NCBI RefSeq assembly: GCF_947492535.1 | Contig: NZ_CANLNH010000008.1 | Span: 120,518-184,517, forward strand | DNA from: an uncultured Dokdonia sp. | GTDB taxonomy: Bacteria; Bacteroidota; Bacteroidia; Flavobacteriales; Flavobacteriaceae | Direction: 5' to 3' | Length of the DNA: 64,000 nucleotides | In this document: positions 3,743-53,222 of the stretch, in pieces | Numbering within the stretch: position 1 is the first letter of the stretch | How the letters are laid out: each line of letters begins with the position of its first letter | The notes under the pieces: generated by a model | The model's database searches: none | Told to the model about the DNA's origin: nothing | Seen by the model: only the letters and a program-made list of their open reading frames with translations | Position numbers and translations under genes: made by a program

Positions 3743-4243
3743 ATGGCATCAGTAACCTTAGGGGGAACCCCAGTAAATACAATAAGCAACCTTCCTGAAG
3801 TAGGAAGTCCAGCACCAGCTTTTACGCTTTCGCGAAATGATCTTTCTTCTGTAACCCTTAATGATTATAGAGGTAAGAGATTAGTGTTAAATATCTTTCC
3901 AAGTGTAGATACGGGTGTTTGTGCTCAATCTATAAGAACATTTAATGAAAGAGCGAGTGCACTAGAAAATACAGAAGTTCTATGCATTTCTCGTGATCTA
4001 CCATTTGCGCAAGCTCGTTTTTGTGGTGCAGAAGGGATTGAGAATGTAAGTACACTTTCCGATTTTAAACGTGGTGAATTTGGAAAAGATTACGGAGTAG
4101 AACTTATAGATGGTGGTTTTGAAGGATTACATTCAAGAGCTATTGTCGTGGTAGATGATAAAGGAAAAGTAATTCATACAGAACAAGTTTCAGAGATAGG
4201 ACACGAGCCTAATTATGATGCTGCCCTTAATGCATTGTCATAG
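3743..4243 (+). CDS. tpx: Thiol peroxidase (atypical 2-Cys peroxiredoxin)
   Basis: FPSVDTGVCA and ISRDLPFAQARFCGAEG motifs; start set at ATG 3743 (MASVTLGG) rather than TTG 3686. Confidence 0.93.
   Translation: MASVTLGGTPVNTISNLPEVGSPAPAFTLSRNDLSSVTLNDYRGKRLVLNIFPSVDTGVCAQSIRTFNERASALENTEVLCISRDLPFAQARFCGAEGIENVSTLSDFKRGEFGKDYGVELIDGGFEGLHSRAIVVVDDKGKVIHTEQVSEIGHEPNYDAALNALS
3823..3837. repeat. Palindrome-family copy inside tpx (read as TLSRN)
   Basis: TACGCTTTCGCGAAA. Confidence 0.8.
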
Positions 4244-4806: not shown

Positions 4807-7299
4807 ATGGCTAAAAAGAAAACAACGACTAAAAGTAAACCTAAAAAAACAAAGACACCCAGAAAACCCATAAGCTTTAAACTTTCTAGACAGCAACAAA
4901 TTATATTAGGAAGTTTTTTGTTTTTTCTTGGAATCGCTTTGTTCTTCTCCTTTGTTTCCTACTTATTTACTTGGAAAGTAGACCAAAGTGTACTTACAGA
5001 TATTACAGATAGAGATGCTCAAACAAAGAACTGGCTAAGTAACTTTGGAGCAGGAATGAGTAATTTCTTTATCTATAAAGGGTTTGGGGTTTCTGCATTT
5101 ATTATATCGATATTACTTACGATATCAGGCGTATATTATTTCTTTGATTATACAAAAGCAAAATTAAGACAGTTTTGGTTTTGGGGTATTTTAGTGATGC
5201 TATGGCTTTCGGTATTTTTCGGATTCTTTCATAAACAGAATGATCTCCTTGGCGGTCGTGTGGGGTACGAGATTAATGATTACCTACAAGATTACTTAGG
5301 CCTTATAGGAGCTGCTTTTATTTTGGCATTTTTAGCAATAGCATATGCGGTAGTACGACTTAAAATGACACCCGATAAAGTAGGAACCTTCTTTAAAAGT
5401 ACAAAAGACCAATTATCTGATGAGTTTAAAGAAACTCCTGCAGATACTATTGAAACCACCGAAACAGTTCAAGCTCCAGAAGCTGACCAAATAGTAGAAG
5501 ATACGTCAGCTATTGTAGAAGAAGTTGTTAAAAATACAGAAGAGGAGAATACATCTGGAAAATCTACATTTGAAATGAATGTAGAAAACCTACAACCTAC
5601 CATTGGTAAAAAGAAAAAGAAGGATGAGCTTGTAGACCCACCTATGGAGATTACAACGCCCGACCCTGAACCAGAATTAGTCATTACTACAGATGCTTCT
5701 GAAGAAATTGATATCGAAATTAAAGCCCCTGTAGAAGAAAAAGAAGTTAAGAAGAACCTTAGTGACCAACTGGTAGATGATTTTGGAGAATTTGATCCTA
5801 CCTTAGAATTGGGACATTATAAATTCCCACCTATTGATTTATTAAAGGATTACACAAAGGGTCAAGGAATCACAATTAATCAACAAGAATTAGAAGAAAA
5901 TAAAAATAGAATTGTTGAGACCCTAAATAATTATAAGATTGGGATTGCAAATATTAAAGCAACCGTTGGTCCTACAGTGACCTTATATGAGATTGTACCT
6001 GAAGCTGGAGTACGTATTTCTAAGATTAAAAACTTAGAAGATGATATTGCATTATCGTTAAGTGCACTTGGAATTCGTATCATAGCACCTATTCCCGGCA
6101 AAGGAACGATAGGGATTGAAGTGCCAAATAAAAACCCAAGAATCGTGTCAATGCGATCTGCTGTAGCTTCTCCTAAGTTTCAAGAAGCCGAAATGGAACT
6201 ACCATTAACATTAGGAAAAACGATCTCTAATGAAACCTTTGTAGTAGATCTTGCAAAAATGCCACACTTATTAATGGCAGGAGCCACCGGGCAAGGAAAA
6301 TCTGTTGGGTTAAATGCCATATTAGCATCTTTATTATATAAGAAACACCCTGCAGAAGTAAAGTTTGTACTTGTTGATCCTAAAAAAGTAGAACTCACAC
6401 TCTTTAATAAAATAGAACGTCACTATCTAGCGAAGCTTCCAGATACAGAAGAAGCTATTATTACAGATAATTCTAAAGTAATCAACACACTAAACTCTCT
6501 TTGTATAGAGATGGATGCACGTTATGATCTGCTTAAAAATGCCATGTGTCGTAATATAAAAGAGTATAATGTGAAGTTTAAAGCCCGTAAACTCAATCCT
6601 AATAATGGGCATAAGTTTTTACCTTATATCGTATTAGTAGTGGATGAATTTGCAGACTTAATCATGACCTCTGGCAAGGAAGTCGAGACACCTATTGCAC
6701 GTTTGGCGCAGCTAGCACGTGCTATTGGAATTCACCTTATTATTGCGACACAAAGACCCTCTGTAAATGTAATTACGGGTATTATTAAAGCAAACTTTCC
6801 TGCACGTATTGCATTTAGAGTAACATCAAAGATAGATAGCCGTACGATTTTGGATACCTCTGGCGCAGACCAATTAATAGGTCGAGGGGATATGCTATAT
6901 ACACAAGGAAATGACGTCGTACGTATTCAATGTGCTTTTGTAGATACACCAGAAGTAGAACGTATCGTAGATTATATAGGCGGTCAAAAAGCCTATCCAG
7001 ATGCGCATCTTCTACCAGAATACGTAGGAGAAGAAAGTGGCACGAGTCTTGATATAGATGCCAGTGATAGAGATAAGCTCTTCCGAGAAGCCGCCGAAGT
7101 ACTGGTAATTGCACAACAAGGAAGTGCCTCTTTATTACAACGAAAACTCAAACTAGGATATAATAGAGCTGGGCGTCTTATAGATCAGCTGGAAGCAGCA
7201 GGCATTGTAGGACCTTTTGAAGGGAGTAAAGCACGTCAAGTACTTGTACCTGATATTATGGCTCTAGATCAACTTTTAAATAATGAAGGAAATGAATAA
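4807..7299 (+). CDS. ftsK: DNA translocase FtsK
   Basis: N-terminal 4 TM, linker, Walker A GATGQGKS, Walker B VVDEFAD, C-terminal gamma domain LQRKLKLGYNRAGRLIDQLE. Confidence 0.97.
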   Translation: MAKKKTTTKSKPKKTKTPRKPISFKLSRQQQIILGSFLFFLGIALFFSFVSYLFTWKVDQSVLTDITDRDAQTKNWLSNFGAGMSNFFIYKGFGVSAFIISILLTISGVYYFFDYTKAKLRQFWFWGILVMLWLSVFFGFFHKQNDLLGGRVGYEINDYLQDYLGLIGAAFILAFLAIAYAVVRLKMTPDKVGTFFKSTKDQLSDEFKETPADTIETTETVQAPEADQIVEDTSAIVEEVVKNTEEENTSGKSTFEMNVENLQPTIGKKKKKDELVDPPMEITTPDPEPELVITTDASEEIDIEIKAPVEEKEVKKNLSDQLVDDFGEFDPTLELGHYKFPPIDLLKDYTKGQGITINQQELEENKNRIVETLNNYKIGIANIKATVGPTVTLYEIVPEAGVRISKIKNLEDDIALSLSALGIRIIAPIPGKGTIGIEVPNKNPRIVSMRSAVASPKFQEAEMELPLTLGKTISNETFVVDLAKMPHLLMAGATGQGKSVGLNAILASLLYKKHPAEVKFVLVDPKKVELTLFNKIERHYLAKLPDTEEAIITDNSKVINTLNSLCIEMDARYDLLKNAMCRNIKEYNVKFKARKLNPNNGHKFLPYIVLVVDEFADLIMTSGKEVETPIARLAQLARAIGIHLIIATQRPSVNVITGIIKANFPARIAFRVTSKIDSRTILDTSGADQLIGRGDMLYTQGNDVVRIQCAFVDTPEVERIVDYIGGQKAYPDAHLLPEYVGEESGTSLDIDASDRDKLFREAAEVLVIAQQGSASLLQRKLKLGYNRAGRLIDQLEAAGIVGPFEGSKARQVLVPDIMALDQLLNNEGNE

Positions 7300-7939
7300 A
7301 GTGAGTATGCGATTTTTAATGAGTATGCTATTAATTTTGGGAGGTTACGCTTTCGCGAAAGCGCAATCAGCTCAATCATTACTCAAAGAAGTAGACAGTA
7401 AAGTAAAGAGCTATGAAAATATAGCCATCGACTTTAAATATGCATTAACCAATGAAGCTGAAGGTGTAAATCAAGAAACGAAAGGGAATGTTGTTTTAAA
7501 GGGAGATTTGTATGCACTTAATTTATTAGGAACGAAACAAATTTTTGACGGCGCTAGTATTTATACAATAGTTCCTGAAGATGAAGAAGTTACTATAAGT
7601 ACGGTAAGTGATCAGGATGAAAATGCAATCACACCATCCAAAATGCTTTCGTTCTTTAATGATGGGTATACCCAAAAAATGGATATTACTCAAAAAGTAA
7701 ATGGACGTACCATACAATATGTGAAATTAACCCCTATGGATTCTAATAGTGAAGTAAAACACACATTATTAGGTGTTGATACTACCACAAAACATATCTA
7801 TAGATTGATTATTGTACAAAAAAACGATACTAAAATTACAATTACAGTAAACTCATTTAAACCTAATCAGCCTATATCTGCAAAAGCATTTGTATTTGAT
7901 GAAAGTAAGTACACAGATTATTATATTAACAAAATATAA
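7292..7939 (+). CDS. lolA: Outer-membrane lipoprotein carrier LolA family
   Basis: Signal peptide ending AFAKA-Q; IFDGASIYTIVPEDEEVTIS and TPSKMLSF motifs; follows ftsK as is usual; start could be 7283, 7292 or 7307. Confidence 0.8.
   Translation: MNKVSMRFLMSMLLILGGYAFAKAQSAQSLLKEVDSKVKSYENIAIDFKYALTNEAEGVNQETKGNVVLKGDLYALNLLGTKQIFDGASIYTIVPEDEEVTISTVSDQDENAITPSKMLSFFNDGYTQKMDITQKVNGRTIQYVKLTPMDSNSEVKHTLLGVDTTTKHIYRLIIVQKNDTKITITVNSFKPNQPISAKAFVFDESKYTDYYINKI
7346..7363. repeat. Palindrome-family copy in lolA signal peptide (YAFAKA)
   Basis: TACGCTTTCGCGAAAGCG. Confidence 0.9.
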
Positions 7940-11334: not shown

Positions 11335-11354
11335 TACGCTTTCGCGAAAGCGTA
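11335..11354. repeat. Perfect 20-bp palindrome, intergenic
   Basis: TACGCTTTCGCGAAAGCGTA. Confidence 0.95.
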
Positions 11355-12993: not shown

Positions 12994-14085
12994 ATGTACA
13001 GAACAACGCTTAAAATTTCTATCATATTCTTATATCTTATTATCATTGCTGGTGCTATTGTTAGGATGACAGGAAGTGGTATGGGATGTCCCGATTGGCC
13101 AAAATGTTTTGGGTATTATATACCACCTACAGAAGAAGCTCAAATTCAATGGGAACCTAATAAAGCGTATAAGAAGGGATATATTATCATTGTAGAAGAA
13201 TCACTGCGTATTGCACCCAAAGATTTTACATCTGCAGCTACGTATTCAGAAAGTAACTGGTCTACGTATGATAAGCATGATTATGCTACGTTTAATGTAT
13301 GGCAAACTTGGATAGAGTATATTAATCGACAAGTAACCGTACTAGCAGGAATCCCAATACTCTTAATGATTATTAGTGCTTTTTGGTATTGGAAACGTCG
13401 TCCGTGGCTTATTTTTGGTTCTTTCTTTGTACTACCGCTTATGGGGTTTGAAGCATGGTTAGGAAAACAAGTGGTAGATTCTAATTTACTTCCTGTAAAG
13501 ATCACCATTCATTTGATTGCAGCCTTAGTTATTGTTGCACTCTTATTATATCTATGGTATAAATCTCAGGAGAAGGAGGGGAGTACGCTTTCGCGAAATC
13601 GAACTCGTGAGATTCAAGATCATAGAGAGAGTGAAGCGTTAAAGCTTAAAAAGCATGACCCACTATTTAAAAACTTAGTGCTATTAGCTGGCGTATTGAC
13701 GTTAGTTCAAGTTGTGTTTGGAACTCAAGTACGTCAATATGTAGATGAACAAGTCATCGCTCTAGGATATGATGCTAAAGACCAATGGTTGAATCCGCCA
13801 ACAGTTATGTTTTATGTACATAGATCATTTTCTATACTTGTAACCCTACTGAATGTATACCTATTCTGGCGCAACCGAAAATACCTATTAGGACACGCCA
13901 ACTTAATGTTATGGATATTGATTCTTATTGCACTAGAAGTTGTGACAGGCATTGCGATGTATTATATAGATTTTCCATTTGGAACACAGCCCTTACATCT
14001 CGTAGTAGCTTCTCTATTATTTGGGGTACAGTTTTATGTGTATTTGGAGAGTATGAGGAGTAGAGAAGAAGTACGTACAGCGTAA
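12994..14085 (+). CDS. Heme A synthase (COX15/CtaA family)
   Basis: VRMTGSGMGCPDWPKCFG, WIEYINR, TIHL, VHRS, QPLHL motifs; 8 TM; carries an in-frame repeat at 13584-13648. Confidence 0.9.
   Translation: MYRTTLKISIIFLYLIIIAGAIVRMTGSGMGCPDWPKCFGYYIPPTEEAQIQWEPNKAYKKGYIIIVEESLRIAPKDFTSAATYSESNWSTYDKHDYATFNVWQTWIEYINRQVTVLAGIPILLMIISAFWYWKRRPWLIFGSFFVLPLMGFEAWLGKQVVDSNLLPVKITIHLIAALVIVALLLYLWYKSQEKEGSTLSRNRTREIQDHRESEALKLKKHDPLFKNLVLLAGVLTLVQVVFGTQVRQYVDEQVIALGYDAKDQWLNPPTVMFYVHRSFSILVTLLNVYLFWRNRKYLLGHANLMLWILILIALEVVTGIAMYYIDFPFGTQPLHLVVASLLFGVQFYVYLESMRSREEVRTA
13584..13648 (+). repeat. 65-bp composite palindrome element inside heme A synthase CDS
   Basis: 50/65 ungapped identity (manual count) to the reverse complement of 24625-24689. 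Confidence 0.85.
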
Positions 14086-16768: not shown

Positions 16769-18343
16769 TTACGAACTACAGGAGAGCATAGAGCATCCTA
16801 CTTTATGACGTGCCCATTCGGGACGTTTGGCAAACCAACGTTCATGTTTAGGTTGCTCATCGTATGGGTTTTTAAGAAGCGCATGAATCTCATCGAGAAG
16901 GTCATAATTCCCTTTATCGGCTTCATCGATGACGAGTTGCGAGATATAGTTACGTAATACATACTTAGGATTTACGGCATTCATCTGTTGCGCACGTTCA
17001 GCATCAGTTAATCGTTCTTGTGAAAGACGTTTGAGATAGTGTTGAAACCATGTTTCCCAGTTGGTATAGATAGCTCCTGTGATCTCTTCTGGTGTGTAGA
17101 AGGCCGCTTTCGCGAAAGCGTAAAAAACATCTTTCAAATTTTCAGTAGTGTCCTTAGATACCTGAGATAGATTCCTAAAGAAAATAGTCATATCGGTTTC
17201 TGAAGCTTGGAGGTTTTTTTCCAGATCAGCAATCAATTGAATATCTGTTTCTAGCGCTAATTGTAGCCCTAGTTTTTCTCGCATCATGGCGATATACTTT
17301 TTAGGGTACTCCGTATGGTAGCTCTGTAAAATTGCTTCTAATTGCGTGGTTTCTCCAATTAATGGAACCAATGCATTAGCAAGCTGTAAAAGATTCCAAA
17401 GTCCTATTTGCGGTTGATTTCCAAAACGATACCGTTTGTTTTGGCGATCGGTGGTATTTGGAGTCCATCCTGGATCATAGCCCTCTAGCCATCCATACGG
17501 ACCATAATCTATCGTAAGACCAAGAATAGACATATTATCAGTATTCATGACTCCGTGTACAAAACCAACACGTTGCCAATGCACAATCATGTTGAGCGTG
17601 TTTTGTACGACTTCATTGAAGAATCCAAGATACCCTTCTTTAGTGCCTTGTTCATAGTGTGGGTAGAAGTGTTTGATGGTATAATCAACGAGTGTTTTAA
17701 GTGTTTCTGTATCTTGGCGGCTTGCAAAGATTTCAAAATTTCCAAAGCGTATAAAACTTGGTGCCACACGACATACAATGGCACCTTTTTCATAAGCAGC
17801 ATTTCCGTCATATAAGACATCTCTTAATACTTGGTCTCCAGATAATGCGAGTGAAAGTGATCGTGTCGTAGGCACGCCCAAATGATACATAGCCTCACTA
17901 CATAAATGCTCTCGAATAGAAGACCTAAGTACTGCAAGTCCATCTGCCGTACGAGAATAGGGAGTTTCACCAGCGCCTTTAAGTTGTATTGCCCAACGCT
18001 TATTATGATGTGTGATTTCTGCTAGGTTAATAGCTCTACCATCCCCTAATTGCCCTGCCCAATGTCCAAATTGATGTCCGCCATAACACATTGCATACGG
18101 CGAAGTGCCTTCTTCTACATTGGCTCCTGTGACCATTTCAAGAAACGCTTTCGATTGCACATCGTCTTCTGAGAATCCAAGAGTCTCTGCCATCTCTTTA
18201 GATACTTGAAGTAGAGAAGGAGTTGATGGTATTCTAGGAGTTACATAAGAAAAACAAGCTTTGGCTACCTGTCGTCTTGTATTTGCGGTAGTAGGATCGG
18301 CAGGTAATTCTTGACTAAACGTGTTTTCTATAGATAATTGCAT
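16769..18343 (-). CDS. selO: SelO/YdiU protein adenylyltransferase
   Basis: YGGHQFG.WAGQLGDGRA, QLKGAG.TPYSR.ADG.AVLRSSIRE, HGVMNTDNMS, C-terminal SCSS; start 18343 supported by a -7 element. Confidence 0.93.
   Translation of the reverse strand: MQLSIENTFSQELPADPTTANTRRQVAKACFSYVTPRIPSTPSLLQVSKEMAETLGFSEDDVQSKAFLEMVTGANVEEGTSPYAMCYGGHQFGHWAGQLGDGRAINLAEITHHNKRWAIQLKGAGETPYSRTADGLAVLRSSIREHLCSEAMYHLGVPTTRSLSLALSGDQVLRDVLYDGNAAYEKGAIVCRVAPSFIRFGNFEIFASRQDTETLKTLVDYTIKHFYPHYEQGTKEGYLGFFNEVVQNTLNMIVHWQRVGFVHGVMNTDNMSILGLTIDYGPYGWLEGYDPGWTPNTTDRQNKRYRFGNQPQIGLWNLLQLANALVPLIGETTQLEAILQSYHTEYPKKYIAMMREKLGLQLALETDIQLIADLEKNLQASETDMTIFFRNLSQVSKDTTENLKDVFYAFAKAAFYTPEEITGAIYTNWETWFQHYLKRLSQERLTDAERAQQMNAVNPKYVLRNYISQLVIDEADKGNYDLLDEIHALLKNPYDEQPKHERWFAKRPEWARHKVGCSMLSCSS
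17105..17122. repeat. Palindrome-family copy inside selO (YAFAKA)
   Basis: CGCTTTCGCGAAAGCGTA. Confidence 0.9.
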
Positions 18344-18375: not shown

Positions 18376-18405
18376 CGAAGACAAATGTGACTTATTGCTA
18401 TTTAC

Positions 18406-18796
18406 TGAAACTACTGATCTGATCTTTAAAATAGCCTATGATTTACAGCCTGAAGGTATATTTTTGAAGCGTACGTTGTAATGAAGGAAATCAAGAGAAC
18501 GGAGTGTCAATAATACGAGAAAGTAAGACATAAATATATCATTGAAATGGCGCTTTATAAGAAACACTGAAGCTATTGATCTGATCTTGAAATAATAGTG
18601 CGATTCTTGATTTCCTCATGTACTTTTGACATCGGTTTAAAAATAAAAGTGAACTGAAACCTATAGGATTGATATAAAAATGAATGTCATCATATAGTTT
18701 TGAAATAGTGATAAAGTAGAATGTTAAAGAAGAGCTGAAACTACGGATCTGATTGACAAAACGTAGTGTGACTTTAAAAATAGGAAGTTACTTTTG
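18406..18796 (+). promoter_or_regulatory. Three tandem box + (-7) promoter modules
   Basis: CTGAARCTAYKGATCTGAT at 18406, 18567 and 18735; TAnnTTTG at 18460, 18621 and 18789 (each +54). Confidence 0.6.
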
Positions 18797-20020: not shown

Positions 20021-21628
20021 CTATCCTTTAACTCCAGGTTGCTTAATTTCAAATCCGCCTTCGTCTGCTTTTGCCTTATCTACCATTGCTTTTACATCAC
20101 GTAATAGCTGTTTAGCATCATAGATAATACCATCTTTAATGGTGTATTTTACACCTCCTGCACGAATCACTTCATTATCTTCAGTGAGTTTGATAGCACC
20201 AGTTCCATACAGTACTTTTAAATTTTGAAGCGGGTTTTCATCTACAATCACAAAATCGGCTAGTTTACCTACTTGTACAGATCCTATTTTATCATCCATA
20301 CGTAGAGCTTCAGCACCATTAAGCGTTGCAGCTCTGATCACTTCCATAGGATGGAAACCAGCTTCTCTTAATAATTCTAATTCGCGTATATAGGCAAATC
20401 CATAGAGTTGAAAGATAAATCCAGAGTCAGATCCAGCAGTGACACGCCCTCCTCTGTTTTTATACTCGTTGATAAAGGTCATCCATAGACGGTAATTTTC
20501 GCGCCAAGCAACTTCTTCTTCCGTTCCCCAGAAATGCCAGTAGGATCCATGCGAAATTTTACTAGGTTGGTAGAAACGCCATAAAGAGGGTAGTGTATAG
20601 TCTTCATGCCACTCTGCACGGCGCGCTCTCATCAAATCACGACTTGCTTCATAGATATTAAAAGTAGGATCTAATGTAAAATCTAAGGCTAATAATTCTT
20701 CCATGACAGCATTCCAATGATCAGAATAAGGAGCTGCTGCTTGTTGCCATAATCTACCCGCTTCTCCAAAACGATGTTGCTCATTGTTATAATTATAATC
20801 TAAAGGATAATCCTGTACCGTACGATCTGTAAATAAGGCTTCAGGCAATCCATACCAATGTTCCATAGAAGTAAGTCCAGCTCTCGCCGAATTTAATACA
20901 TTCCATCTCGCTACACTTAATTGTGCGTGATGCATGGATGAGGTAAGACCTAATTTTTTATTTTCTTCCAATGCCGCCTGCATGATATGAGGTTCTGCGC
21001 CAAAAAACTTAATCCCATCTGCGCCTTTTTTTGCATTATCACGTACCCATTGTCTTGCTTGTTCTGCAGTAGTGATAGGCGTTTTACTTCCTTGCCCAAA
21101 ACCTGTATGTGCGACAATACGCGGTGCGATAATTTCATTTTTTGCAGATCTACGTTTTAAATCTAAGGCATAATCGATACCTCTTCCTGATGGTTCGCGC
21201 ACCGTTGTTACCCCATGTGCCATCCATAACTTAAACACATATTCCCAATCTGCGCCTTGAGCTACACCTCCAATATGTCCATGCATATCTACAAAACCAG
21301 GCAGCAGATACATCCCATTGGCATCAAGTTCTTTTCCTCCATTTTTAAGTTGCGGGCGTTTGGTAGCATCAATGGGTACGCCTGGATATCCTACTACCTT
21401 AATTTCTTTGATGATATTATTTTCTACGACAATATCTACGGGACCAATAGGCGGTGCGCCATCACCATTTATAACGGTGACACCTCGTATGATTAATTGA
21501 TTAAATGGACCTTGCTGTGTTTGCGCTCCTGCCTGTCGTGCTATATTTTGAGCCCTTGCGGCAGACAGGTTCGCGAAAGCGTATACAGTAAAAATAATAG
21601 TGAGTGTGAGAAGTAGTTGTTTTTTCAT
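20021..21628 (-). CDS. Exported amidohydrolase-superfamily metalloenzyme
   Basis: PGFVDMHGH, VTAGSD, GSVQVGKLADFVIV; signal peptide. Confidence 0.88.
   Translation of the reverse strand: MKKQLLLTLTIIFTVYAFANLSAARAQNIARQAGAQTQQGPFNQLIIRGVTVINGDGAPPIGPVDIVVENNIIKEIKVVGYPGVPIDATKRPQLKNGGKELDANGMYLLPGFVDMHGHIGGVAQGADWEYVFKLWMAHGVTTVREPSGRGIDYALDLKRRSAKNEIIAPRIVAHTGFGQGSKTPITTAEQARQWVRDNAKKGADGIKFFGAEPHIMQAALEENKKLGLTSSMHHAQLSVARWNVLNSARAGLTSMEHWYGLPEALFTDRTVQDYPLDYNYNNEQHRFGEAGRLWQQAAAPYSDHWNAVMEELLALDFTLDPTFNIYEASRDLMRARRAEWHEDYTLPSLWRFYQPSKISHGSYWHFWGTEEEVAWRENYRLWMTFINEYKNRGGRVTAGSDSGFIFQLYGFAYIRELELLREAGFHPMEVIRAATLNGAEALRMDDKIGSVQVGKLADFVIVDENPLQNLKVLYGTGAIKLTEDNEVIRAGGVKYTIKDGIIYDAKQLLRDVKAMVDKAKADEGGFEIKQPGVKG
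21570..21583. repeat. Partial palindrome copy in amidohydrolase signal peptide (YAFA)
   Basis: TTCGCGAAAGCGTA. Confidence 0.7.
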
Positions 21629-24127: not shown

Positions 24128-24550
24128 TTAACTTGAATCCAACATTCCTTTTCTAGTGATCAAGTTAATTATAATTCTTGTTATAAAATAAATACCTAGG
24201 ATAATAAAGAAACTACTAAAACGAAAGTTGAAATTCAGCGTACCAAATGGCCAAAGTATTTTTGCTAAAAGGGGTCCTATAATGGTTAGATATAAAATAA
24301 GCCATATTCCTATGGCTGTTACTTCTATAAGTACGTTTTTGATTTTTGTTATTTTCTCAATATACTTTTTAGCAAAAAAAGTAATTAAGATAAGAGATGT
24401 TGTTGCAGCACTAGAAAAGAATAACCAATACCAAGGATGTTCTTCAAAAATAGCGTCTTTTCTACTAATATGTTCGTAATAATCGTAAGCAGAGTAGATT
24501 ATTACGATTACTACAAAGTAGTATAATGGATTTTTAGGTATTTTATTCAA
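24128..24550 (-). CDS. Hypothetical membrane protein
   Basis: 4 hydrophobic segments. Confidence 0.7.
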   Translation of the reverse strand: MNKIPKNPLYYFVVIVIIYSAYDYYEHISRKDAIFEEHPWYWLFFSSAATTSLILITFFAKKYIEKITKIKNVLIEVTAIGIWLILYLTIIGPLLAKILWPFGTLNFNFRFSSFFIILGIYFITRIIINLITRKGMLDSS

Positions 24551-24624: not shown

Positions 24625-24689
24625 TACGCTTTACCGCTAAGCTCTCCCTCTGGTCGTGAATCTCGTAAACTCGCTTTCGCGAAAGCGTA
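24625..24689 (-). repeat. 65-bp composite palindrome element, intergenic
   Basis: TACGCTTT + 45 nt + CGCGAAAGCGTA; homologous to 13584-13648. Confidence 0.85.
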
Positions 24690-24712: not shown

Positions 24713-25390
24713 TCATTTTTGAGGAAGCAATGTCCATTCTTTATCTACTGGTTGATGTGTTTTTATAAACGCTGACGGTTGCATTAAGAAGAATGAATTA
24801 TCATAATCAAATTCAAATAGTTCTGTGGTTACATCTGTAAAACCACTAGACCAGGTGGCATCGCATAGATACCATTTTCCATTGAGTTTAATGACATTCC
24901 AAGAGTGATTAGGCATCTCTAAATTTTTAGATTTCATACTTCCATCTAAGCCATACCCATTTATGATTTTGCACTCTAAACCAGCCAATCGGGATAATTC
25001 TTGGACTAAATAGGCATAACCTGTACAAAGTGTTTCTTTATCATTAAGTAATTTTTTAAATACCTGTCTTTTAAATTGATGGTTCCAAATGTGTAATGCT
25101 TCTGGATCGTCTTTTAGCTTTTGACGTTTACGATCATTTTTTAGCATCAGTCCGTACTCTCCTTTTATATTATGGCACACCCAATAATAGATAGCTCTAA
25201 AACGCTCCACATCCGTATCTAACGTATAGGTTAGTTGATGAGCGAGCATTGGTAAATTAGTAAGTGCTTCACCTTTATGTCTATCTGCAATATTCTCAGC
25301 TTTTGTAAAATCGATGGTTTTAAAATCGCTTTGTTGTGCATGTAAGAACGGCATAAAGATGAAGCATACTAAAAGAAGATATCTTCTCAT
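24713..25390 (-). CDS. Exported transglutaminase-like domain protein
   Basis: LCTGYAYL, HSWNVIKLNGKWYLCDATW (Cys-His-Asp triad). Confidence 0.85.
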   Translation of the reverse strand: MRRYLLLVCFIFMPFLHAQQSDFKTIDFTKAENIADRHKGEALTNLPMLAHQLTYTLDTDVERFRAIYYWVCHNIKGEYGLMLKNDRKRQKLKDDPEALHIWNHQFKRQVFKKLLNDKETLCTGYAYLVQELSRLAGLECKIINGYGLDGSMKSKNLEMPNHSWNVIKLNGKWYLCDATWSSGFTDVTTELFEFDYDNSFFLMQPSAFIKTHQPVDKEWTLLPQK

Positions 25391-26401: not shown

Positions 26402-26421
26402 TACGCTTTCGCGAAAGCGTA
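26402..26421. repeat. Perfect 20-bp palindrome, intergenic
   Basis: TACGCTTTCGCGAAAGCGTA. Confidence 0.95.
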
Positions 26422-27963: not shown

Positions 27964-28033
27964 AATTTACTTACTTTAATGATGAATCGGACTTTCAAAA
28001 ACAAAACGTTTAAAAATAACGTATTCGGAAGCT

Positions 28034-28315
28034 AGTTACGGAAAGTACGTCTTTTTTTGTGCTTTGCATATTACAAAAAAGGACGTACAACCACCAACAT
28101 TACGTTGGCATACAATTTTACTTTAGTTAATCAAACTTCCAAAGAACAAGGCATTAAAAAATAACTTATTTAGAATTGAGTTACGGAAAGTACGTTCTTT
28201 TTTGTGCTTCGCATATTACAAAAAAGGACGTACAACCACCAACACTACGTTGGCATACAATTTTACTTTAGTTAATCAAACTTCCAAAGAACAAGGCATT
28301 AAAAAATAATTTATT
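28034..28315. repeat. 145-bp tandem duplication covering the M14 gene 3' end and its terminator
   Basis: 28034-28170 versus 28179-28315, about 5 differences; each copy holds a GTACGT...ACGTAC hairpin (28045-28088, 28190-28233). Confidence 0.92.
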
Positions 28316-30781
28316 CGTACCATACCAACTCCCTCTAAAGTTAGGATTATCAGCAAAAAGGACGACACGACCACTCCCTTGTGGACTTACCACTAAAGAA
28401 GCCGATGGTTTTAAATTATCTTCCAAATTTTCTTCAGAAATAAAACCATCTATATGTGGGTCTTTCGTATACTTAGCTACTGTGTTATATTCATTTTTAC
28501 TAGGCGCTAACCATACATTATTATTCTTATAAACAGGCAAATCGCGGTAACGATATCCAAATCCAAGCGGGTGAGTGATATCTAAATCTACTTTGAAAAT
28601 AGCACCTCCTAAACGTTGTTTTCCTCTATTATTACGTGCATCTACATAGTTTTTACGTTCAGTTACTTTGGTTGTATCCTTTTTCTTTTCTGTTAGTTTT
28701 CCAGTAGCTATTTTTCGGTTAACTGCCCATGAAGTTGCACGCCCTATCGTAATGAGTGTATTCCCTTGAGATACCCATGTTTTAAGTTTTTGTACATCTC
28801 CATCAGAAAGCCGACTATAATTTCCAGAGACCATTACTAGGGTGTTGTACTTGCTAAGATCTGCAAATCGGAAGTTATTCATCAGAATCTTCGTAATAGG
28901 CATATGTACACGTGTATCGAGTAGATGCCATACCTCTCCCGCTTCATACGAACTCGTGCCATCCCCAATAAGCATGGCTGCTTTGGGCGTGTCAATTTTT
29001 GCAAAGTTACTACTCCCTAGATCAATTCCTTTAACACTAAAACCTGTATTTGTAGCATGAATAGGTACTTGAAAACGTTGCTGGGCTTCAGAAACAATGG
29101 TAAATACTTCATTTGCATCTAGTGACTGTCTACTCACAGGAACCAGAAGTGCTCCATAATTAAAATCTACGGTTCCATTTTGTGTTTTTGCAGTAAAGGA
29201 TTTAAAAGCCGTAGATACTGTAATTCCTTTTTGTTGAAGGTGATATAGTAATGCTGTAGCATTATAATCATCATAATCTATGAGATACGCATAGTTTGTT
29301 TTTGAAACTGGAGTCACTGTAGCGATACCATCTGTACTGGTTACTTCATTACTCAAACGAGGCACACTATTTAACCCTTTGTAGCGCATATTATAAAAAT
29401 TGGCGACACTCCATGCGCTGGCATCATAATACACACTATCGCGGTATTTGCTATACGTCTCAAAAAAAGATTGCACCATACGTTTTTGTGGTTGTGCTAC
29501 AGGCACTACATAGGTGCCATCTCCTTTTTTGTAGGTTTTAATTCGATGTAATAGAAGTTTGTCTATAAATGCTTTGGTACGATTTCGGTCGTTAGGATCT
29601 CCAAATTCATAAGCAACGGCTTGATCTGTTTTTGCTTTCGCGAAAGCGGATACAAAGAAATCTTGCTGGTATTTACGTAAACGAGCTTTATTCTCAACAG
29701 CTGCTTTAACCGTAGCAAAGCTAGAAGTATACTGATTACGAATCGTAAACGGAAAAGAAATCGTTCCAAAATCGGTGTCTTGTAAATGCCCTCGACTACT
29801 GGCTTGTTCAAAAAGCAATGCGAGTGCTCCTTGTAAGTCGGGATACGAACTTCCATAGCCAGGATAGGTGCCATCAAAGGCTTCTTTTGTAAAATAGAAA
29901 GACCCAATCTGATCTAATGCATCTGAAAAGTAAGGAGCAAAAAGGTTGTTGAGGTCTTCGTAGTTTTCTTTAGGCATGATAGGATTTAAACTCCCTATAG
30001 GTAACATAGGTTCAAAGAAGTGAGTGCTATTAGTGCCCATTTCGTGAAAATCGGTGACTACATTTGGATACCACTCGTGATACCAATTTAATTTCCCACG
30101 ACTCTCTGGATGAATCCCAAGTAACCAATCTCGGTTTAAGTCAAACCAATAATGATTGGTACGTCCTCGTGGCCACATTTCTGTATGTTCTGCATCAATA
30201 TTATCAGAGACAAGCGGTGATCCTTTAAAGCTATTTGCCCATTGCGTATGACGATCACGTCCGTCAGGATTAATGGTAGGATCTATAAAAATAATAGCAT
30301 TTTTACGGTAGTTGGCGATAGCTGCATGCTCTGAAGCAACGAGTGTGTAGGCTGTTAATAGAGCAGCTTCAGAACTAGAAGGCTCATTACCATGTACATT
30401 ATATCCTAATTGTATAAAAACTGGAACTTGATCATAATTTGTTGCTTTTTGCGAGGTATTAGAAAAAGCAAGATGCTGTTTTTTAATAGTTTCTAAGTTG
30501 GTGTGATTTTCTGGAGTAGCGATTGTAAGCATGACTAATTTTCTGCCTTCATGAGTACGACCGTATTCTGAAATAGTTGCTCGGTCAGATACTTCGGCAA
30601 GTTTTTCTAAATAAGAAACAATTTGATCATGTCGTGTATGCTGCTCTCCAATACCGTAGCCTAGAAATTCTTCAGGTGTTGGAATGCTTTGTTGAAAAGG
30701 AGTATATTTTGCAAAATAATAGTCTTGCGCTTTCGCGAAAGCGGATAAAAAGAGAATAATAATGAGTAAAGAACGTTTCAT
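28268..30781 (-). CDS. Exported M14 zinc carboxypeptidase-family protein
   Basis: NVHGNEPS, NPDGR, DLNRDW, DFHEMG; signal peptide. Confidence 0.9.
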   Translation of the reverse strand: MKRSLLIIILFLSAFAKAQDYYFAKYTPFQQSIPTPEEFLGYGIGEQHTRHDQIVSYLEKLAEVSDRATISEYGRTHEGRKLVMLTIATPENHTNLETIKKQHLAFSNTSQKATNYDQVPVFIQLGYNVHGNEPSSSEAALLTAYTLVASEHAAIANYRKNAIIFIDPTINPDGRDRHTQWANSFKGSPLVSDNIDAEHTEMWPRGRTNHYWFDLNRDWLLGIHPESRGKLNWYHEWYPNVVTDFHEMGTNSTHFFEPMLPIGSLNPIMPKENYEDLNNLFAPYFSDALDQIGSFYFTKEAFDGTYPGYGSSYPDLQGALALLFEQASSRGHLQDTDFGTISFPFTIRNQYTSSFATVKAAVENKARLRKYQQDFFVSAFAKAKTDQAVAYEFGDPNDRNRTKAFIDKLLLHRIKTYKKGDGTYVVPVAQPQKRMVQSFFETYSKYRDSVYYDASAWSVANFYNMRYKGLNSVPRLSNEVTSTDGIATVTPVSKTNYAYLIDYDDYNATALLYHLQQKGITVSTAFKSFTAKTQNGTVDFNYGALLVPVSRQSLDANEVFTIVSEAQQRFQVPIHATNTGFSVKGIDLGSSNFAKIDTPKAAMLIGDGTSSYEAGEVWHLLDTRVHMPITKILMNNFRFADLSKYNTLVMVSGNYSRLSDGDVQKLKTWVSQGNTLITIGRATSWAVNRKIATGKLTEKKKDTTKVTERKNYVDARNNRGKQRLGGAIFKVDLDITHPLGFGYRYRDLPVYKNNNVWLAPSKNEYNTVAKYTKDPHIDGFISEENLEDNLKPSASLVVSPQGSGRVVLFADNPNFRGSWYGTNKLFFNALFFGSLIN
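29634..29648. repeat. Palindrome-family copy inside M14 gene (AFAKA)
   Basis: GCTTTCGCGAAAGCG. Confidence 0.88.
30728..30743. repeat. Palindrome-family copy in M14 signal peptide (SAFAKAQ)
   Basis: CGCTTTCGCGAAAGCG. Confidence 0.9.
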
Positions 30782-30912
30782 ACACAAAGTTTTAGTAGAT
30801 TAAAAATAGGCAAAAAATAAGAGGATGATCATGCATATAAGTTCATTTATTTTTTTATTAAAGAATTTCTTGCACGATATTTGATATAATTGTTGAAAAT
30901 TTAAAATTGTAT

Positions 30913-39302: not shown

Positions 39303-40070
39303 CTATTCAATAATCAGATGGGGTACTTTATCCAATTTCCAATCTATAACAAGTCCTCCAGCAAGAGAACGCGCAATTTCTGCTCCATATAAATGCTCTG
39401 CTAGGTAGAGTGCTGCTTCAAAACTTTTGGCACCACCTGCTGAGGTTATGTACTTGTCATCGTGAACAAATAATACTTCCTTACGAATATCAAGCTGTGG
39501 AAATGTTTCACGCATCTTGTCTATGTCACTAGGGAAAGTAGTGGATACTTTTCCATCCAATAATCCTGCTTTTGCTAGAACAAATGCACCATCACAATGT
39601 GAGGTGATAAATTGTGCATTTTGATCTACCTTTTTGACAAAATCAATCATTACTTGGTCATCTAAATCAGTATCTAGATGGTGTTCTGCGCTTGGTACTA
39701 CCAGAATATCGATGTTAGGTAGGTCTGGTGCTGTATAATCAAAGTCGGGTAGGAGGTACATGCCTTCAAATGTTCGGATTGGGTCTAGGGTATTTGCTAC
39801 CGTAAATACATTCATCTGCTTGATGTTTTCGCGATACTGTGTATGTTGAAAGATATCAAAAGGCGCTGTGAGTTCTGTGTTATAGGTTCCGTCCATGATT
39901 AGAAAGGCGACATTATATCGCCCTTCTTTTAGTTCTGGTTTTGCTTTCGCGAAAGCGTTATTAGACGTAGTAATTTCTGTATTAGGCACCTCTGTTTCTA
40001 TCTGTTTTCCTTCTTTAGTCTCGCAAGAGTAGAGTGCTAGTACCGCTATTAGAATAAATAGATGCTTCAT
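39303..40070 (-). CDS. DJ-1/PfpI-family lipoprotein
   Basis: Lipobox LYSC; ELTAPFD, SHCDGAFVLAKAGLLDG, TSAGG. Confidence 0.87.
   Translation of the reverse strand: MKHLFILIAVLALYSCETKEGKQIETEVPNTEITTSNNAFAKAKPELKEGRYNVAFLIMDGTYNTELTAPFDIFQHTQYRENIKQMNVFTVANTLDPIRTFEGMYLLPDFDYTAPDLPNIDILVVPSAEHHLDTDLDDQVMIDFVKKVDQNAQFITSHCDGAFVLAKAGLLDGKVSTTFPSDIDKMRETFPQLDIRKEVLFVHDDKYITSAGGAKSFEAALYLAEHLYGAEIARSLAGGLVIDWKLDKVPHLIIE
39943..39958. repeat. Palindrome-family copy in DJ-1 protein linker (AFAKA)
   Basis: GCTTTCGCGAAAGCGT. Confidence 0.88.
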
Positions 40071-41562: not shown

Positions 41563-42204
41563 ATGAAAATTTATATTTTTTTAGTTGTTTTTGCTTTCGC
41601 GAAAATTGCTATTTGTCAGACAGATACAGCGTTAACTGATCATCATAAATTATTAATAGAACACGCTCAGAAACATCAAGATTCACTTTCGGAAGTATAT
41701 AAAAACCCAGAAACGTCTATTCTAAGTAAGAAGCAATTAAAAAAATTTCATGGATTAGAATTCTATCCCATCGACTTAAAATTTCGCGTAAGCGCAACCT
41801 TTACTAGAACACCAAATTCAACACCATTTCCTATGGCTACTTCTACAGGTATTCCTAGAACGTATGTGAAATATGGAGAAGTAACTTTTGATCTATTAGG
41901 AAAAACACATACACTTTCCATTTATCAAAACCCAACATTTACAGCGACACCTAATCATAAATATGCAGATCATCTCATGCTAGGTTTTACAGATTATACG
42001 AGTGGAGACGGTTCTTATGGAGGGGGACGATATGTAGATATAGGCATATCAGATATAAGAGACAACCAGTTAATCATTGATTTTAATAAAGCCTATAATC
42101 CCTATTGCGCATATACTGAAGGGTATTCCTGTGCCATTCCTCCTGATGATAATGATGTTACCATTAGAATAGAAGCGGGTGTGAAGGATTATGGAAAGCA
42201 TTAA
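41563..42204 (+). CDS. DUF1684-family protein
   Basis: FTDYTSGDGSYGGGRYVD, IDFNKAYNPYCAY...YSCAIPP. Confidence 0.9.
   Translation: MKIYIFLVVFAFAKIAICQTDTALTDHHKLLIEHAQKHQDSLSEVYKNPETSILSKKQLKKFHGLEFYPIDLKFRVSATFTRTPNSTPFPMATSTGIPRTYVKYGEVTFDLLGKTHTLSIYQNPTFTATPNHKYADHLMLGFTDYTSGDGSYGGGRYVDIGISDIRDNQLIIDFNKAYNPYCAYTEGYSCAIPPDDNDVTIRIEAGVKDYGKH
41593..41604. repeat. Palindrome-family copy in DUF1684 signal peptide (AFAK)
   Basis: GCTTTCGCGAAA. Confidence 0.8.
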
Positions 42205-45577: not shown

Positions 45578-45635
45578 AATTTTTTAGAGTTTTGGTTAGT
45601 AATTAGTTGATTAATACCGGTAATAATTCTAAGTC

Positions 45636-45653
45636 CGCTTTCGCGAAAGCGTA
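45636..45653. repeat. Palindrome-family copy, intergenic
   Basis: CGCTTTCGCGAAAGCGTA. Confidence 0.92.
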
Positions 45654-48598: not shown

Positions 48599-48618
48599 TA
48601 CGCTTTCGCGAAAGCGTA
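48599..48618. repeat. Perfect 20-bp palindrome, intergenic
   Basis: TACGCTTTCGCGAAAGCGTA. Confidence 0.95.
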
Positions 48619-48624
48619 TATATA

Positions 48625-51600
48625 TTATTTTAAATAGTCACTGGTGATTGAAACGTTGATTTGAACGATATCTCCAGTTCTATTAAATAGCTGCTGACTT
48701 ACTATTTCATCAAGGCTGAGTCCTTCAAAAATCTGTGATGTCCCTTTTTTAGAATGTACCTCTACACTCGATTTTTCAGAAATGGTATACATAACGGGCA
48801 CTTGACAATAGGTAAAGCACATCGCCTCTTTTGGAATAGTAATCGTTTGTTTATTTTGGTTTATATCTATGTAATCAAATGATTGTGGGGTCTTTAAAAA
48901 TTCTGATTTACGAAGCATGTCTGGACTAAATTGGAGTTTGCCTTCTCGTACAAAGACACCTAATTCTCCAAAACGACTTAGAATATCTTCTTTTACTTGT
49001 CCCGTCATTCCTGGTTGTTGCGCTCCTTTACCCGCAGGTGTATGCGAGTAGGGGTCTGTTGGAAATGCTCCATATAATTTAGGAGATTTATGAACACCAA
49101 TCCCTTCATTGATTTCATAATAGTGTTCTAACAATCGGCCAATAATAGCGTCACTTTCATTTTCTTTGATGGCTTTTAAACAACATTCTTGAACTGCCAG
49201 TAATAGTTTAGATACCATATGCCAGTAAATAGAACCAAGTCCTTCATAACCAAAAAAGGTACCTGATCTTCCTGTAAATGCCTTGTGATTAAATACCATT
49301 TCATAGGTGTCTAATATATGTTGGCGCTCTTTCGTGATAAGTGATTGATATGCTGGGCCTAATGTGTCTAAGGCTTCGTTGAGCATTTTGGCATTATTAA
49401 AGGTACCATTGAAATGGTAGTTCCCCTTGATATCCTTTTGTATGATTTGCGTATTGCCATCCGTAAGAAGTTGCTGTAATAATTGAGATGCAGTAACTGC
49501 TTTTTCAGGGATATTATTTTTATCTAAAAACTTTAATAACTCTTTATTTGGATAGAGGATATAACTGTATTGATCTTCTCTAAATAAAGCACTGTTTTTT
49601 AATGCATCTAGCACCGCTAGGTTTTCTTTAGAACTTAAATATCCTGAACTTAGCACGGCTACTTGTCCTTCTAACATTTCGTCTAAATAGCTTATAGAAA
49701 CTTCTTTATCGCCTTCTTGCGTCATTAAGTTATAGGCGTGATATAAGTTGTCTTCTCTTGTATTTGCATCAATAGTATGTTCTATATATGCTAGGGTAGT
49801 AGTAACAAAATCAGCAATGTTAGCCAAAGAAATGTCTTTCTTTTTTCCAGAAAAGGCATGTTGATATACGCGGGTTCTATAGGTGCTTGCAGGTGTTGCT
49901 AGACCATCTAAAATAGCTTTGCGTGCACTGTCAGATATAGCGCCGTTTAGTACATTTTTATGAGCGCTTAGTGTCAATGTAACACTATTATAAAATTCTA
50001 GTAACTCTTCAGATATTTGAGATTCTTTTACAGAAGCATTTGCTATAATCTCTCCAAAGAATGTAAGAAAACGTCTTAAGTAATACAGTGTTACCATAGA
50101 TACACCATTACCTACGAGTGCATTGTTTGCATCATTCCATTCCGGACGTTGTGTATTTAACCAGATTCCAGCTTCAGGAATAAAGTTAGAGACTTTAGCC
50201 AAGACCGTAGCCAGTATTTTTTCTATGAAATTTACAGTATAAATACGACCATTTGCATCTTGTATAAGTGCACCGTCTACACCCAAAGTAGCTCTTCTTT
50301 CGTTGATCTTATGATCAAGATCAAAGTCAAAATTTATAGTGTCTTTTGGGTTTTTTAAGATGTCTGAGTAGCTTTTAATTTTATAAGGAACATTTGCATA
50401 TACAAAGAGGTCTTTATCAAAATAACTAGCTAATTTCCCAGGAGTATGGTTTTCAATAATCTCTAAAAACTTCTGTAAATAGATAATTTGATGATCACCC
50501 CAGTACCCAATATACGCCCATGGATTGTCTTCTTCAATCACTTCCCAGTCAAATCCGCCTTTTGTAACTCGGTATGGGTTATATCCATCAAAAGTGGTTG
50601 CATTTAGAAATTTATGAATCATGCTCTCGATAAACTCAGGGTAGGAGAGGGCTAGTGCTTCCCAATTTTGGAAAATATCTCTCCAGTTTCCTTCGTAATC
50701 TAATACCTTAGAACCATCGATCTCGCTTCGTGTATTGATTGAAAATTTATTCCAAGGCCTACTTGGATCCCCATGCCTTCTACTAAACTTTAAGGGCATG
50801 TATTCTAAGCAAAGTCTTTTAAAATGAGGATCGTCACTTTGAGATGCGAGTTCCTTAAGATCTGAAAGTGTAAATAGATCAGGTAGTTTATTAATAGTCG
50901 CTTTCTCTTGTTTATAAACGGTTGTATTTGCTTTCGCTAAATAGTGCTCGAAATCCCATTTTTCTATTTGATAGTTTTTATCAAAAATGCCACCTCTCAT
51001 AATATTGAAAAGTGTATTTGCAAAATGCCGTGTATTTCGAAGTTCGTTAGCACTTAGCTGCATCGCATCAGATGCGCCTGCAAGTTCTAAAAGATGTGTT
51101 GTTCCTTTATCAATATCTTCTTGTACTAACTCCATAAGATTTGGAGTTGTTTGTATTTTTTCAGAGATCGCTGTGATGGAACTTATGGTATAGTTTACAT
51201 CAATAATGAGCATCCATTGTTTTTGCTGTTTACTACCTAATTCAAGGTCTGTAGTTACAAAATAAGCACCTCGCTCTGCTTTTACATCTGTTTCTTGATG
51301 AAGGGTGCCTCCGCGTCTAAATGTATCTAGTTGTAGTGATGATACTAGATATGTAGGTTGTTCAATCCCTAATGACCAAGCAATGTTACTTTTTAATGCT
51401 TCACTAGGTTCTGCTTTATCAACTATGGTGGCACTAAGTGCATACATACCTACACCAGAATCAGTGATAAGTTCATTGCGTTTATAGGCATCTACCAAAT
51501 TGCTACTCGCTTTTTGTAGATCTTCACCTACACTATATGGAATGATATTTTGTAGCCCGTCAAGTACGGTTACTTTGATAGGAGTATCAAGATCATTTAC

Positions 51601-53202: not shown

Positions 53203-53222
53203 TACGCTTTCGCGAAAGCGTA
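53203..53222. repeat. Perfect 20-bp palindrome, intergenic
   Basis: TACGCTTTCGCGAAAGCGTA. Confidence 0.95.

Follow-up and report, generated by a model that had tools for sequence, protein, structure and literature searches.

A 45-nt repeat unit lying in frame within a 20-bp palindrome of the heme A synthase gene of an uncultured Dokdonia

In the account of PMC10969869, the Rickettsia palindromic elements (RPEs; Ogata et al. 2000, 2002) are about 100–150 bp long, palindromic over their whole length and carried by an obligate intracellular alphaproteobacterium, and the in-frame colonisation of housekeeping proteins by selfish repeats is treated there as a Rickettsia peculiarity. A comparable case is described here in 64,000 nt of an uncultured Dokdonia sp. 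(Flavobacteriaceae; contig NZ_CANLNH010000008.1), the whole of which is referred to as the window. Its ctaA gene, encoding heme A synthase, carries a 65-bp element made up of a 20-bp palindrome (P1, TACGCTTTCGCGAAAGCGTA) split after base 12 by a 45-nt unit (module A), and a sister copy of the same composition lies between two other genes. We consider it probable that P1 acts as a landing pad for such units, and that one module A was added in frame to the P1 of ctaA.

Like RPEs, these are small, non-autonomous repeats that lie in frame in unrelated housekeeping genes, at places compatible with the protein fold, and also between genes, with no transposase known. They differ in that the unit is 45 nt (65 bp with P1), that only its outer 8 bp pair, that it sits inside a separate palindrome and can form tandems, and that the hosts are free-living marine Bacteroidota. 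The Rickettsia precedent, invoked in a preliminary description of the window, is useful as an analogy for in-frame insertion but not as a family relationship; the likeness is one of outcome.

In cyanobacteria, passages of PMC3116915 and PMC5861425 that draw on Elhai et al. (2008) describe the HIP1 palindrome together with small dispersed repeats (SDRs), including SDR5 in the Nostocaceae. The likeness lies in an iterated palindrome, found in and between genes, that is the insertion site for tiny repeats able to nest. Correspondingly, P1 is found both filled and empty in ctaA (twice), in SelO and at one intergenic site, and both module A and P1 can hold a nested second palindrome (P2). HIP1 is reportedly 8 bp and the SDRs 21–27 nt long, whereas the system described here has a 20-bp palindrome, cassettes of about 36–46 nt and tandem arrays, belongs to another phylum, and makes prominent in-frame additions to enzymes.

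Pneumococcal BOX elements have terminal inverted repeats that resemble those of ISSpn2, and are flanked by target-site duplications (PMC3049150). They share with the present repeats an architecture, boxA-boxB(n)-boxC, in which pairing terminal parts enclose zero to n tandem internal modules (here n = 0, 1, 2, 3 and 10), but the likeness is architectural only. BoxB is 45 nt, the length of module A. In BOX elements both strands carry open frames, and open reading frames (ORFs) are occasionally extended or formed by them; the BOX termini are about 50–60 nt, compared to 8–12 nt here, and the swapping of modules at orthologous sites does not belong to their described behaviour.

A fourth comparison is with REP/REPIN sequences and their RAYT (TnpA_REP, HUH Y1) transposases (PMC3116915, PMC6006769), among which Bacteroidetes-specific TnpA_REP subclasses (2.6 and 2.4) have atypical secondary structures at their flanks (PMC6006769). 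These, too, are short, abundant hairpin palindromes, thought to be handled as single-stranded DNA and lacking target duplications, and the position of P2 beside TTCRCGA resembles the target-adjacent insertion of the IS200/IS605 family. However, REPs are extragenic by definition, whereas five of the 13 P1 copies of the window lie in genes and module A is found in seven genes; and P1 is a perfect palindrome without a spacer, where a REP is an imperfect hairpin with a conserved 5′ tetranucleotide. Full-text searches of the literature on Dokdonia or Flavobacteriaceae brought up no relevant work on palindromic or miniature repeats.

The 45-nt unit in the heme A synthase loop

The preliminary description had reported two 65-mers with a duplicated AAAGCG, one of them translated in frame within a loop of heme A synthase, and had proposed that a mobile element added a peptide to a respiratory enzyme, with the palindrome as either target or terminus. 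The coordinates of both are exact, and they align without gaps at 50 of 65 positions (13584–13648, plus strand, TACGCTTTCGCGAAATCGAACTCGTGAGATTCAAGATCATAGAGAGAGTGAAGCGTTAAAGCTTA; reverse complement of 24625–24689, TACGCTTTCGCGAAAGCGAGTTTACGAGATTCACGACCAGAGGGAGAGCTTAGCGGTAAAGCGTA). Each has the first 12 nt of P1 (TACGCTTTCGCG), 45 nt of module A, and the last 8 nt of P1 (AAAGCGTA; AAAGCTTA in ctaA), so that both begin with TACGCTTTCGCG and end with AAAGC(G/T)TA. The features are as follows.

12994..14085, plus strand: ctaA, heme A synthase (COX15/CtaA, PF02628), 363 aa, intact
13584..13595, plus strand: left part of the resident P1 (TACGCTTTCGCG), read (S)TLSR; the same bases occupy the same place in ctaA of the P1-only loci L047–L052, L087 and L243
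13596..13640, plus strand: module A, type-T, 45 nt, read NRTREIQDHRESEAL (15 aa); nhmmer E = 2.7e-11 against the family profile
13641..13648, plus strand: P1 right arm, somewhat decayed (AAAGCTTA); in L048, the bare P1 has a matching right end (GAAAGCTTAAAAAG)
24625..24689, minus strand: intergenic sister, with 12 nt of P1, module A (24633–24677, type-G, starting AAAGCG) and the right arm of P1; nhmmer E = 1.2e-12

The sister lies between two minus-strand genes (24128–24550 and 24713–25390). Its AAAGCG duplication is exact, but the corresponding hexamers in ctaA read AAATCG and AAAGCT. An exact repeat is found in only a minority of the family, most members carrying AAATCG at the left, so that it need not be a target-site duplication; the empty site for a cassette is an intact P1.

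The ctaA ORF matches Pfam PF02628 over its full length (E = 8.1e-45; score 153.7 bits, cut-off 29.9; profile positions 4–321 of 322), and the element is read through as residues S197–L218 (STLSRNRTREIQDHRESEALKL). The protein is 100% identical to P0001, 65–93% identical to Dokdonia orthologues and weakly similar to the Bacillus subtilis heme A synthase 6A2J. The CtaA alignment has an invariant CPDWPKC motif, and the paired cysteines of the first outer loop are present. AlphaFold predicts eight long helices (residues 2–25, 102–132, 137–162, 167–205, 223–257, 271–296, 302–324 and 331–362) arranged as two four-helix halves and a linker, with a mean predicted local distance difference test score (pLDDT) of 80 and a predicted template modelling score of 0.78. 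The insert falls between predicted helices 4 (167–205) and 5 (223–257), in a linker of low confidence; pLDDT is below 50 only at 29–46, 199–203, 205–217 and 360–363. In the 6A2J structure and the published CtaA topology, the linker joining the halves presumably faces the cytoplasm. Together with the model and the K/R-rich flanks, this suggests that the insert linker is probably disordered and cytoplasmic. Its length varies widely across the CtaA protein alignment, and the effect of the insert on the enzyme is most likely neutral.

Within the 66-nt region, eight of the 10 columns that vary among four orthologous ctaA copies are third codon positions (probability about 0.003 by our own arithmetic, if changes were spread evenly over codon positions). 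The window unit departs from the family consensus mainly by synonymous changes, with one replacement (H to Q). Judged by this substitution pattern, the insert appears now to evolve as ordinary coding sequence. Peptide stretches spanning the insert are predicted from the frame to be EIQDHRESEALK or EIHDHRESEALK.

The loop was compared using the CtaA protein alignment and the loop DNA of 20 genomes, and the following states were found.

No repeat, 13–23 residues: Sungkyunkwania, Kordia, Aquimarina, Winogradskyella and some Dokdonia (L054–L057)
P1 only, read TLSRK(R): L047–L052, L087 and L243; perfect in L050, L087 and L052, slightly altered in L047–L049
P1 plus exactly 45 nt, adding 15 residues (NRTREIHDHRESEAL): the window, L058, L043 and L045
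Module A with the left P1 arm replaced by a further module: L044
A different 20-nt palindrome, P2 (CCTGCCTGCCGGTAGGCAGG), in a P1 remnant: L046

Between the conserved W/Y anchors, the repeat-free loops measure 13–16 residues compared to 34 in the window, so that orthologues lacking the repeat are not equally long, and relative to the nearest P1-only relatives the gain is exactly 15 residues. This supports the proposal that a mobile element has added a peptide to the enzyme.

Module A was gained in ctaA more than once. The CtaA protein P0012, which is 72% identical to that of the window, has the unit, which is missing from its close relative P0023. In the DNA, L243 carries a bare P1 (...gagTACGCTTTCGCGAAAGCGTAatac... 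/ ...atgagTACGCTTTCGCGAAAGCGTAatac...), and L242, with the same flanks, has exactly 45 nt more (...atgagTACGCTTTCGCGAAAGCG[AACTAGTGAGCTTCACGACCATAGGGAGAGCGAAGCGATAAAGCG]TAatac...). Between the units of L043 and L242, identity is 91% and 14 of 15 third positions agree, compared to 47% of third positions in the rest of the gene; at that background, a match at 14 or more of 15 has a probability of about 2e-4 (our own binomial arithmetic). Because the units are far more similar than the gene around them, the two ctaA lineages acquired module A separately, after their split, it is concluded. A neighbour-joining (NJ) tree calculated with the loop masked places the two module A lineages apart in the genus, among P1-only lineages. 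As P1 is resident in ctaA of many Dokdonia, and the unit was added within it in two lineages, the palindrome is better regarded as the target than as the terminus of a larger element.

Two loops have further changes. In L044, the additional module upstream of module A (L044:2090–2135, GGACTACTTCGACAAGCTCAGCATGACA) is read GLLRQAQHDI, and similar CTGAGC…GTCGAAGT motifs flank module A in Aquimarina-labelled metagenome-assembled genomes (MAGs; L018, L021). In the ctaA loop of Dokdonia isolate 1128 (L053:2085–2112, GGTTTGCTTTTGCATAAGCAAACC), P1 carries symmetrical changes in its arms and centre and is still palindromic; these are mostly CpG to TpG/CpA on both arms, and could represent decay of methylated cytosines rather than selection for pairing.

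Module A and other cassettes at further sites

Module A belongs to a dispersed family. A 13-mer of the 45-nt core (CTCCCTCTGGTCG) gave one exact match in the window, the rest being at chance level, and the core search that had been suggested worked better with a degenerate core (GAGATTCAMGAYCAKAGRGAGAG), which picked out 42 loci when bacterial assemblies, one genome per species, were scanned. Dokdonia accounts for nearly all of them (D. pacifica DSM 25597, D. ponticola and a number of MAGs), with a few from Aquimarina-labelled MAGs. The consensus, including the P1 parts, is TACGCTTTCGCG-[AAATCGAACTTGTGAGATTCACGACCATAGGGAGAGCGAAGCGTT]-AAAGCGTA, and both window copies have the 45-nt unit, the core GAGATTCACGACCAKAGGGAGAG and P1 halves on the flanks. 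A family profile detects 73 units in the collected loci, and only these two in the window. In metagenomes containing related strains, contig depth rises 10–40-fold over 13584–13645 and contigs end there, as expected of a multi-copy repeat.

Units also occur in tandem, with 10 in an intergenic array (L042), three in L001 and two each in L003 and L022, indicating a general build of left P1, n units and right arm, in which bare P1 is the case n = 0. Longer autonomous versions, as envisaged in the preliminary description, were not found: the multi-unit forms are tandem arrays of module A or composites with other modules of about 45 nt. The intergenic arrays L042:2011–2466 (10 units) and L015:1427–1551 and 5448–5618 (3–4 units) have a 45/46-nt period, begin at the left P1 half and are degenerate at the right end.

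Besides ctaA, module A spans long ORFs in six further genes, with Pfam domains on both sides of it or beside it, where it is read AFAKSSLRDSRPEGExSxKA; this gives seven genes and two conserved frames. The six hosts are listed below.

PD40/amidohydrolase protein, 1,118 aa
3-hydroxyacyl-CoA dehydrogenase (two species)
LuxC-like reductase
Thiamine-phosphate-synthase-like protein
DUF4920 protein
Small ORF whose cytochrome c match (21.0 bits) is below the cut-off of 21.3

The copies in these six genes are of type-G (CCAGAGGG, CTTGCGAG), which is open in the AFAK frame. Type-T (CCATAGGG, CTTGTGAG) has TGA and TAG in that frame, and ctaA holds a type-T unit in the other, open frame. This pairing of type and frame is what selection against frame-breaking insertions would leave.

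Two further P1 sites hold different cassettes in different species, again pointing to P1 as the target. The first is the site of the intergenic sister, a short way downstream of the transglutaminase-like gene 24713–25390. Here, Dokdonia isolate 746 (L091) has a bare P1, D. pacifica (L092) has P1 with a module of about 46 nt (module B, AAGGAGCAGAGTGACGTAGAAGTTTATGCTGAGCTCAGTCGAAGTA), and the window has module A. The second is in SelO, which is 524 aa in most Dokdonia (bare P1), 554 aa in D. ponticola and 536 aa in P0131. The additional residues fall precisely at the junction of AF(A) and KAA in the YAFAKAA that P1 encodes. In D. ponticola there are two other modules (+90 nt, L049:3654; +30 aa, e.g., EAEVHTERSRSAKAETESHTKHIEVPTKSL), and in P0131 a single module of 12 aa (EAEVPSERSRRV; P0131–P0133 compared). 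An exact or degenerate copy of the right P1 arm comes after each module. Cassettes appear and disappear precisely within P1, differ at the same P1 between species, and are bounded by arm-like direct repeats.

Module B (…GACGTAGAAGTTTATRCTGAGC…GTCGAAGTA) occurs alone in the P1 centre (L092:2198–2262, L002:759, L173:1717) or ahead of module A units in composite arrays (L001, L039, L016, L230), and was not found in the window.

P2 is a second perfect palindrome of 20 nt (CCTGCCTGCCGGCAGGCAGG), nested in module A or P1 without duplication (L092:3456, L151:6497, L230:7342, L032:148, L046:2103, L192:6643 and L200:7013). Its junctions are GAGA^TTCACGA in module A and ACGCT^TTCGCGA in P1, and TTCRCGA adjoins five of six copies (at up to three mismatches). 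Loose contig ends in metagenomes show both junctions. In L046 ctaA, P2 is read LPAGRQ; it was not found in the window.

Origin of the insert and route of transfer

The reading that we favour is that short non-coding cassettes of about 36–46 nt (module A, module B and further types) enter P1 next to its centre, and that they can stack as tandem arrays and be lost precisely. In ctaA, P1 would already have been present in the helix 4–5 linker, as TLSRK(R), before module A arrived. An ancestor of the subclade that includes this genome would then have received one module A (45 nt, 15 codons, in a stop-free frame) between CGCG and AAAGC, keeping the reading frame, and would have tolerated it because the linker is variable in length and probably disordered and cytoplasmic. 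The intergenic copy at 24625–24689 would represent the same event at another P1. As to how cassettes are transferred, our preferred guess is that they are copied between P1 sites on single-stranded DNA, either by an HUH/RAYT-type enzyme that recognises hairpins or through template switching during replication, with use of the 8–12-nt arm homologies. We infer that these two routes are roughly equally likely, and that transfer as a DDE-type miniature inverted-repeat transposable element (MITE) is less likely. Changes in array length and precise losses could come from slippage between the arm-like repeats.

Several observations weigh against this reading. No HUH Y1 ORF was detected among 4,891 ORFs in 1.57 Mb of Dokdonia and Nonlabens fragments (HUH/Y regular expression, and phmmer with IS200/RAYT queries), which is weak evidence, the search covering genome fragments. 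The 65-mer had no match in plasmid and phage collections, and no longer autonomous element was found. In the NJ tree, L046, which has no module A, groups inside the module A clade, where the tree is weakly resolved; this position requires at least one precise loss or an extra gain. BLAST with the flanking sequences of 244 loci gave no P1-free empty site, all orthologous pairs found sharing P1. The P1 of SelO takes the place of an equally long segment in other genera, with no indel, so that P1 may arise by short-patch replacement and not by insertion. The probable cytoplasmic side of the CtaA linker is drawn from published topology and the K/R-rich flanks, and translation of the peptide is suggested by the reading frame and substitution pattern. 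The sole RNA contig found, from a metatranscriptome, spans 13896–14061 and leaves the insert outside.

P1 itself is common to orthologous sites of different species among the collected loci, where the flanks are 82–94% identical. Metagenome contigs are syntenic with the 20 kb of the window that were compared (about 93% identity), and the matches listed included no P1-empty allele. In SelO, P1 behaves less like a classical insertion than like a highly iterated palindrome. A candidate mechanism in which P1 inserts as 16 bp with a TA duplication (an 18-bp in-frame gain) was rejected, the SelO alignment showing no length change at P1.

It is unlikely, though it fits part of the data, that only deletions have occurred, an old composite of P1 halves and several modules having inserted once per site and the present states being its deletion products, generated by slippage. 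The arm-like direct repeats on either side of every module (AAATCG/AAAGCG, CGAAGTA/CGAAAGCG) would favour its precise deletion; L001, L039, L016 and L230 carry composites in which A units come after B; and L046 does seem to have lost module A. However, the ctaA units are 91% identical and share 14 of 15 third positions, compared to 47% in the gene, so that a single insertion at the root would need later homogenisation. P1-only is also the widespread state of ctaA, and no ctaA or SelO orthologue was seen with a full multi-module composite.

Nor do we expect the 65-bp unit to prove a classical MITE, with terminal inverted repeats of 8–12 bp, mobilised in one piece by a DDE transposase whose gene lies elsewhere, perhaps into TA targets, and leaving bare P1 by internal deletion; the chances of this are slim. 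The termini TACGCTTT...AAAGCGTA are indeed inverted repeats, perfect over 8 bp (the P1 arms), many copies have TA at both flanks, and most units begin with AAATCG where a resident P1 has AAAGCG, which would fit copying of the whole 65-mer. Yet at three orthologous sites P1 is constant and its interior differs (nothing, A, B or other modules), which whole-element transposition does not predict. The Dokdonia genome fragments examined gave neither a P1-free empty site nor a related insertion sequence, and P1 in SelO entails no change of length.

A functional signal, with the 65-mer serving as a structured regulatory RNA (terminator, attenuator or small RNA) or as a protein-binding site that overlaps ctaA by chance, is very improbable. 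P1 can form an 8-bp hairpin (−7.3 kcal/mol), and its conservation at orthologous sites between species could reflect function. Against this, no Rfam family was found for the whole window (gathering threshold) or for the 10-unit array (E ≤ 1), the 65-mer interior folds like shuffled sequence (z = −0.3 to −2.1), and no U-run follows the hairpin. RNAalifold on 25 aligned copies gave only the P1 stem, with no compensatory pairs and a covariation term of −0.08. A central cassette would destroy a dimeric binding site, and the ctaA copy drifts from the family consensus at synonymous positions. The structured-RNA idea was dropped, since folding and RNAalifold recovered only the P1 stem, without covariation.

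Local origin of the 15 residues, by duplication or slippage within ctaA or as a selected linker whose likeness to other loci is secondary, can practically be set aside: the linker does vary in length across the CtaA family and the insert has a coding-type substitution pattern, but the 37-nt core has no counterpart in P1-only ctaA, matches dozens of intergenic copies and arrays in several genomes, and is part of a module read in a different frame in other genes.

A more far-reaching form of the favoured landing-pad reading is offered only tentatively, as we find it doubtful. Dokdonia and Nonlabens might possess a previously undescribed cassette system in which the 20-bp palindrome is a docking site, spread through genes without change of length, and 36–46-nt cassettes are copied seamlessly in and out, each regenerating one arm, by a mechanism distinct from the known DDE or RAYT types (e.g., hairpin-guided template switching or a new single-strand DNA enzyme). 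If so, it would be a natural generator of 12–30-residue insertions in soluble and membrane enzymes, as most cassettes have a length divisible by three and one or two open frames.

The outcome known from Rickettsia is now seen in free-living marine flavobacteria, in what looks like a counterpart of the Rickettsia protein-coding palindromes. Its anatomy is clearer, with a resident docking palindrome, interchangeable cassettes of about 45 nt, and filled and empty pairs in ctaA and SelO, making it a tractable system for studying how tiny non-coding repeats move and how often new protein segments result. In practical terms, these repeats break metagenome assemblies and give length variants in otherwise conserved marker proteins.

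P1 across the window and other repeats

There are 13 copies of P1 in the window at up to three mismatches, or about one per 5 kb, compared to none in 100 shuffles, and exact P1 occurs in many Dokdonia and Nonlabens genomes among the matches listed. P1 has no stop codon in any frame, which accounts for its presence within as well as between genes. Five of the 13 are inside Pfam-matched genes, four in the AFAKA frame and one, in ctaA, in the TLSRK frame. Copies other than the two split by module A are as follows.

7346..7365: bare P1 in a LolA-like gene, read YAFAKAQ, at the end of an apparent N-terminal signal sequence; conserved at the orthologous site of L028
11335..11354: bare P1, perfect, upstream of a dihydrolipoyl dehydrogenase-like ORF
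17103..17122: bare P1 in SelO, read YAFAKAA
22252..22271: bare P1, perfect, intergenic
26402..26421: bare P1, perfect, intergenic
29631..29650: P1 with three outer mismatches in the gene of an M14 carboxypeptidase, where it is read SAFAKAK
30726..30745: variant of P1 at the 5′ edge of ORF 28268–30787
39940..39959: P1 variant in a DJ-1/PfpI gene, read NAFAKAK
45634..45653: bare P1, intergenic
48599..48618: bare P1, perfect, in a 60-bp gap between two minus-strand genes
53203..53222: bare P1, perfect, intergenic

Partial copies (the left 16 nt at 3823–3838, the right 14 nt at 21570 within 21567–21586, and a degenerate copy at 50921–50941) indicate that the P1 family is larger than the 13 full copies. 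About 20 codons past the ATG, P1 is read (Y)AFAK(A) in the LolA-like gene (MRFLMSMLLILGGYAFAKAQ...) and in ORF 41563–42204 (MKIYIFLVVFAFAK...), the sites relevant to this observation being 7346–7365, 41584–41604 and 11335–11354. The encoded A-x-A falls at the expected signal-peptidase position, and P1 may have been co-opted into signal peptides.

The window also contains repeats unrelated to P1. Three copies with a 432-nt period (85% identity) form a tandem duplication at 62340–63503, two copies with a 435-nt period lie at 53286–54020, inside ORF 53268–55544, and two copies with a 145-nt period at 27997–28286. Three short repeats at 18404–18760 are about 165 nt apart. All of these look like repeated protein domains or intergenic repeats.

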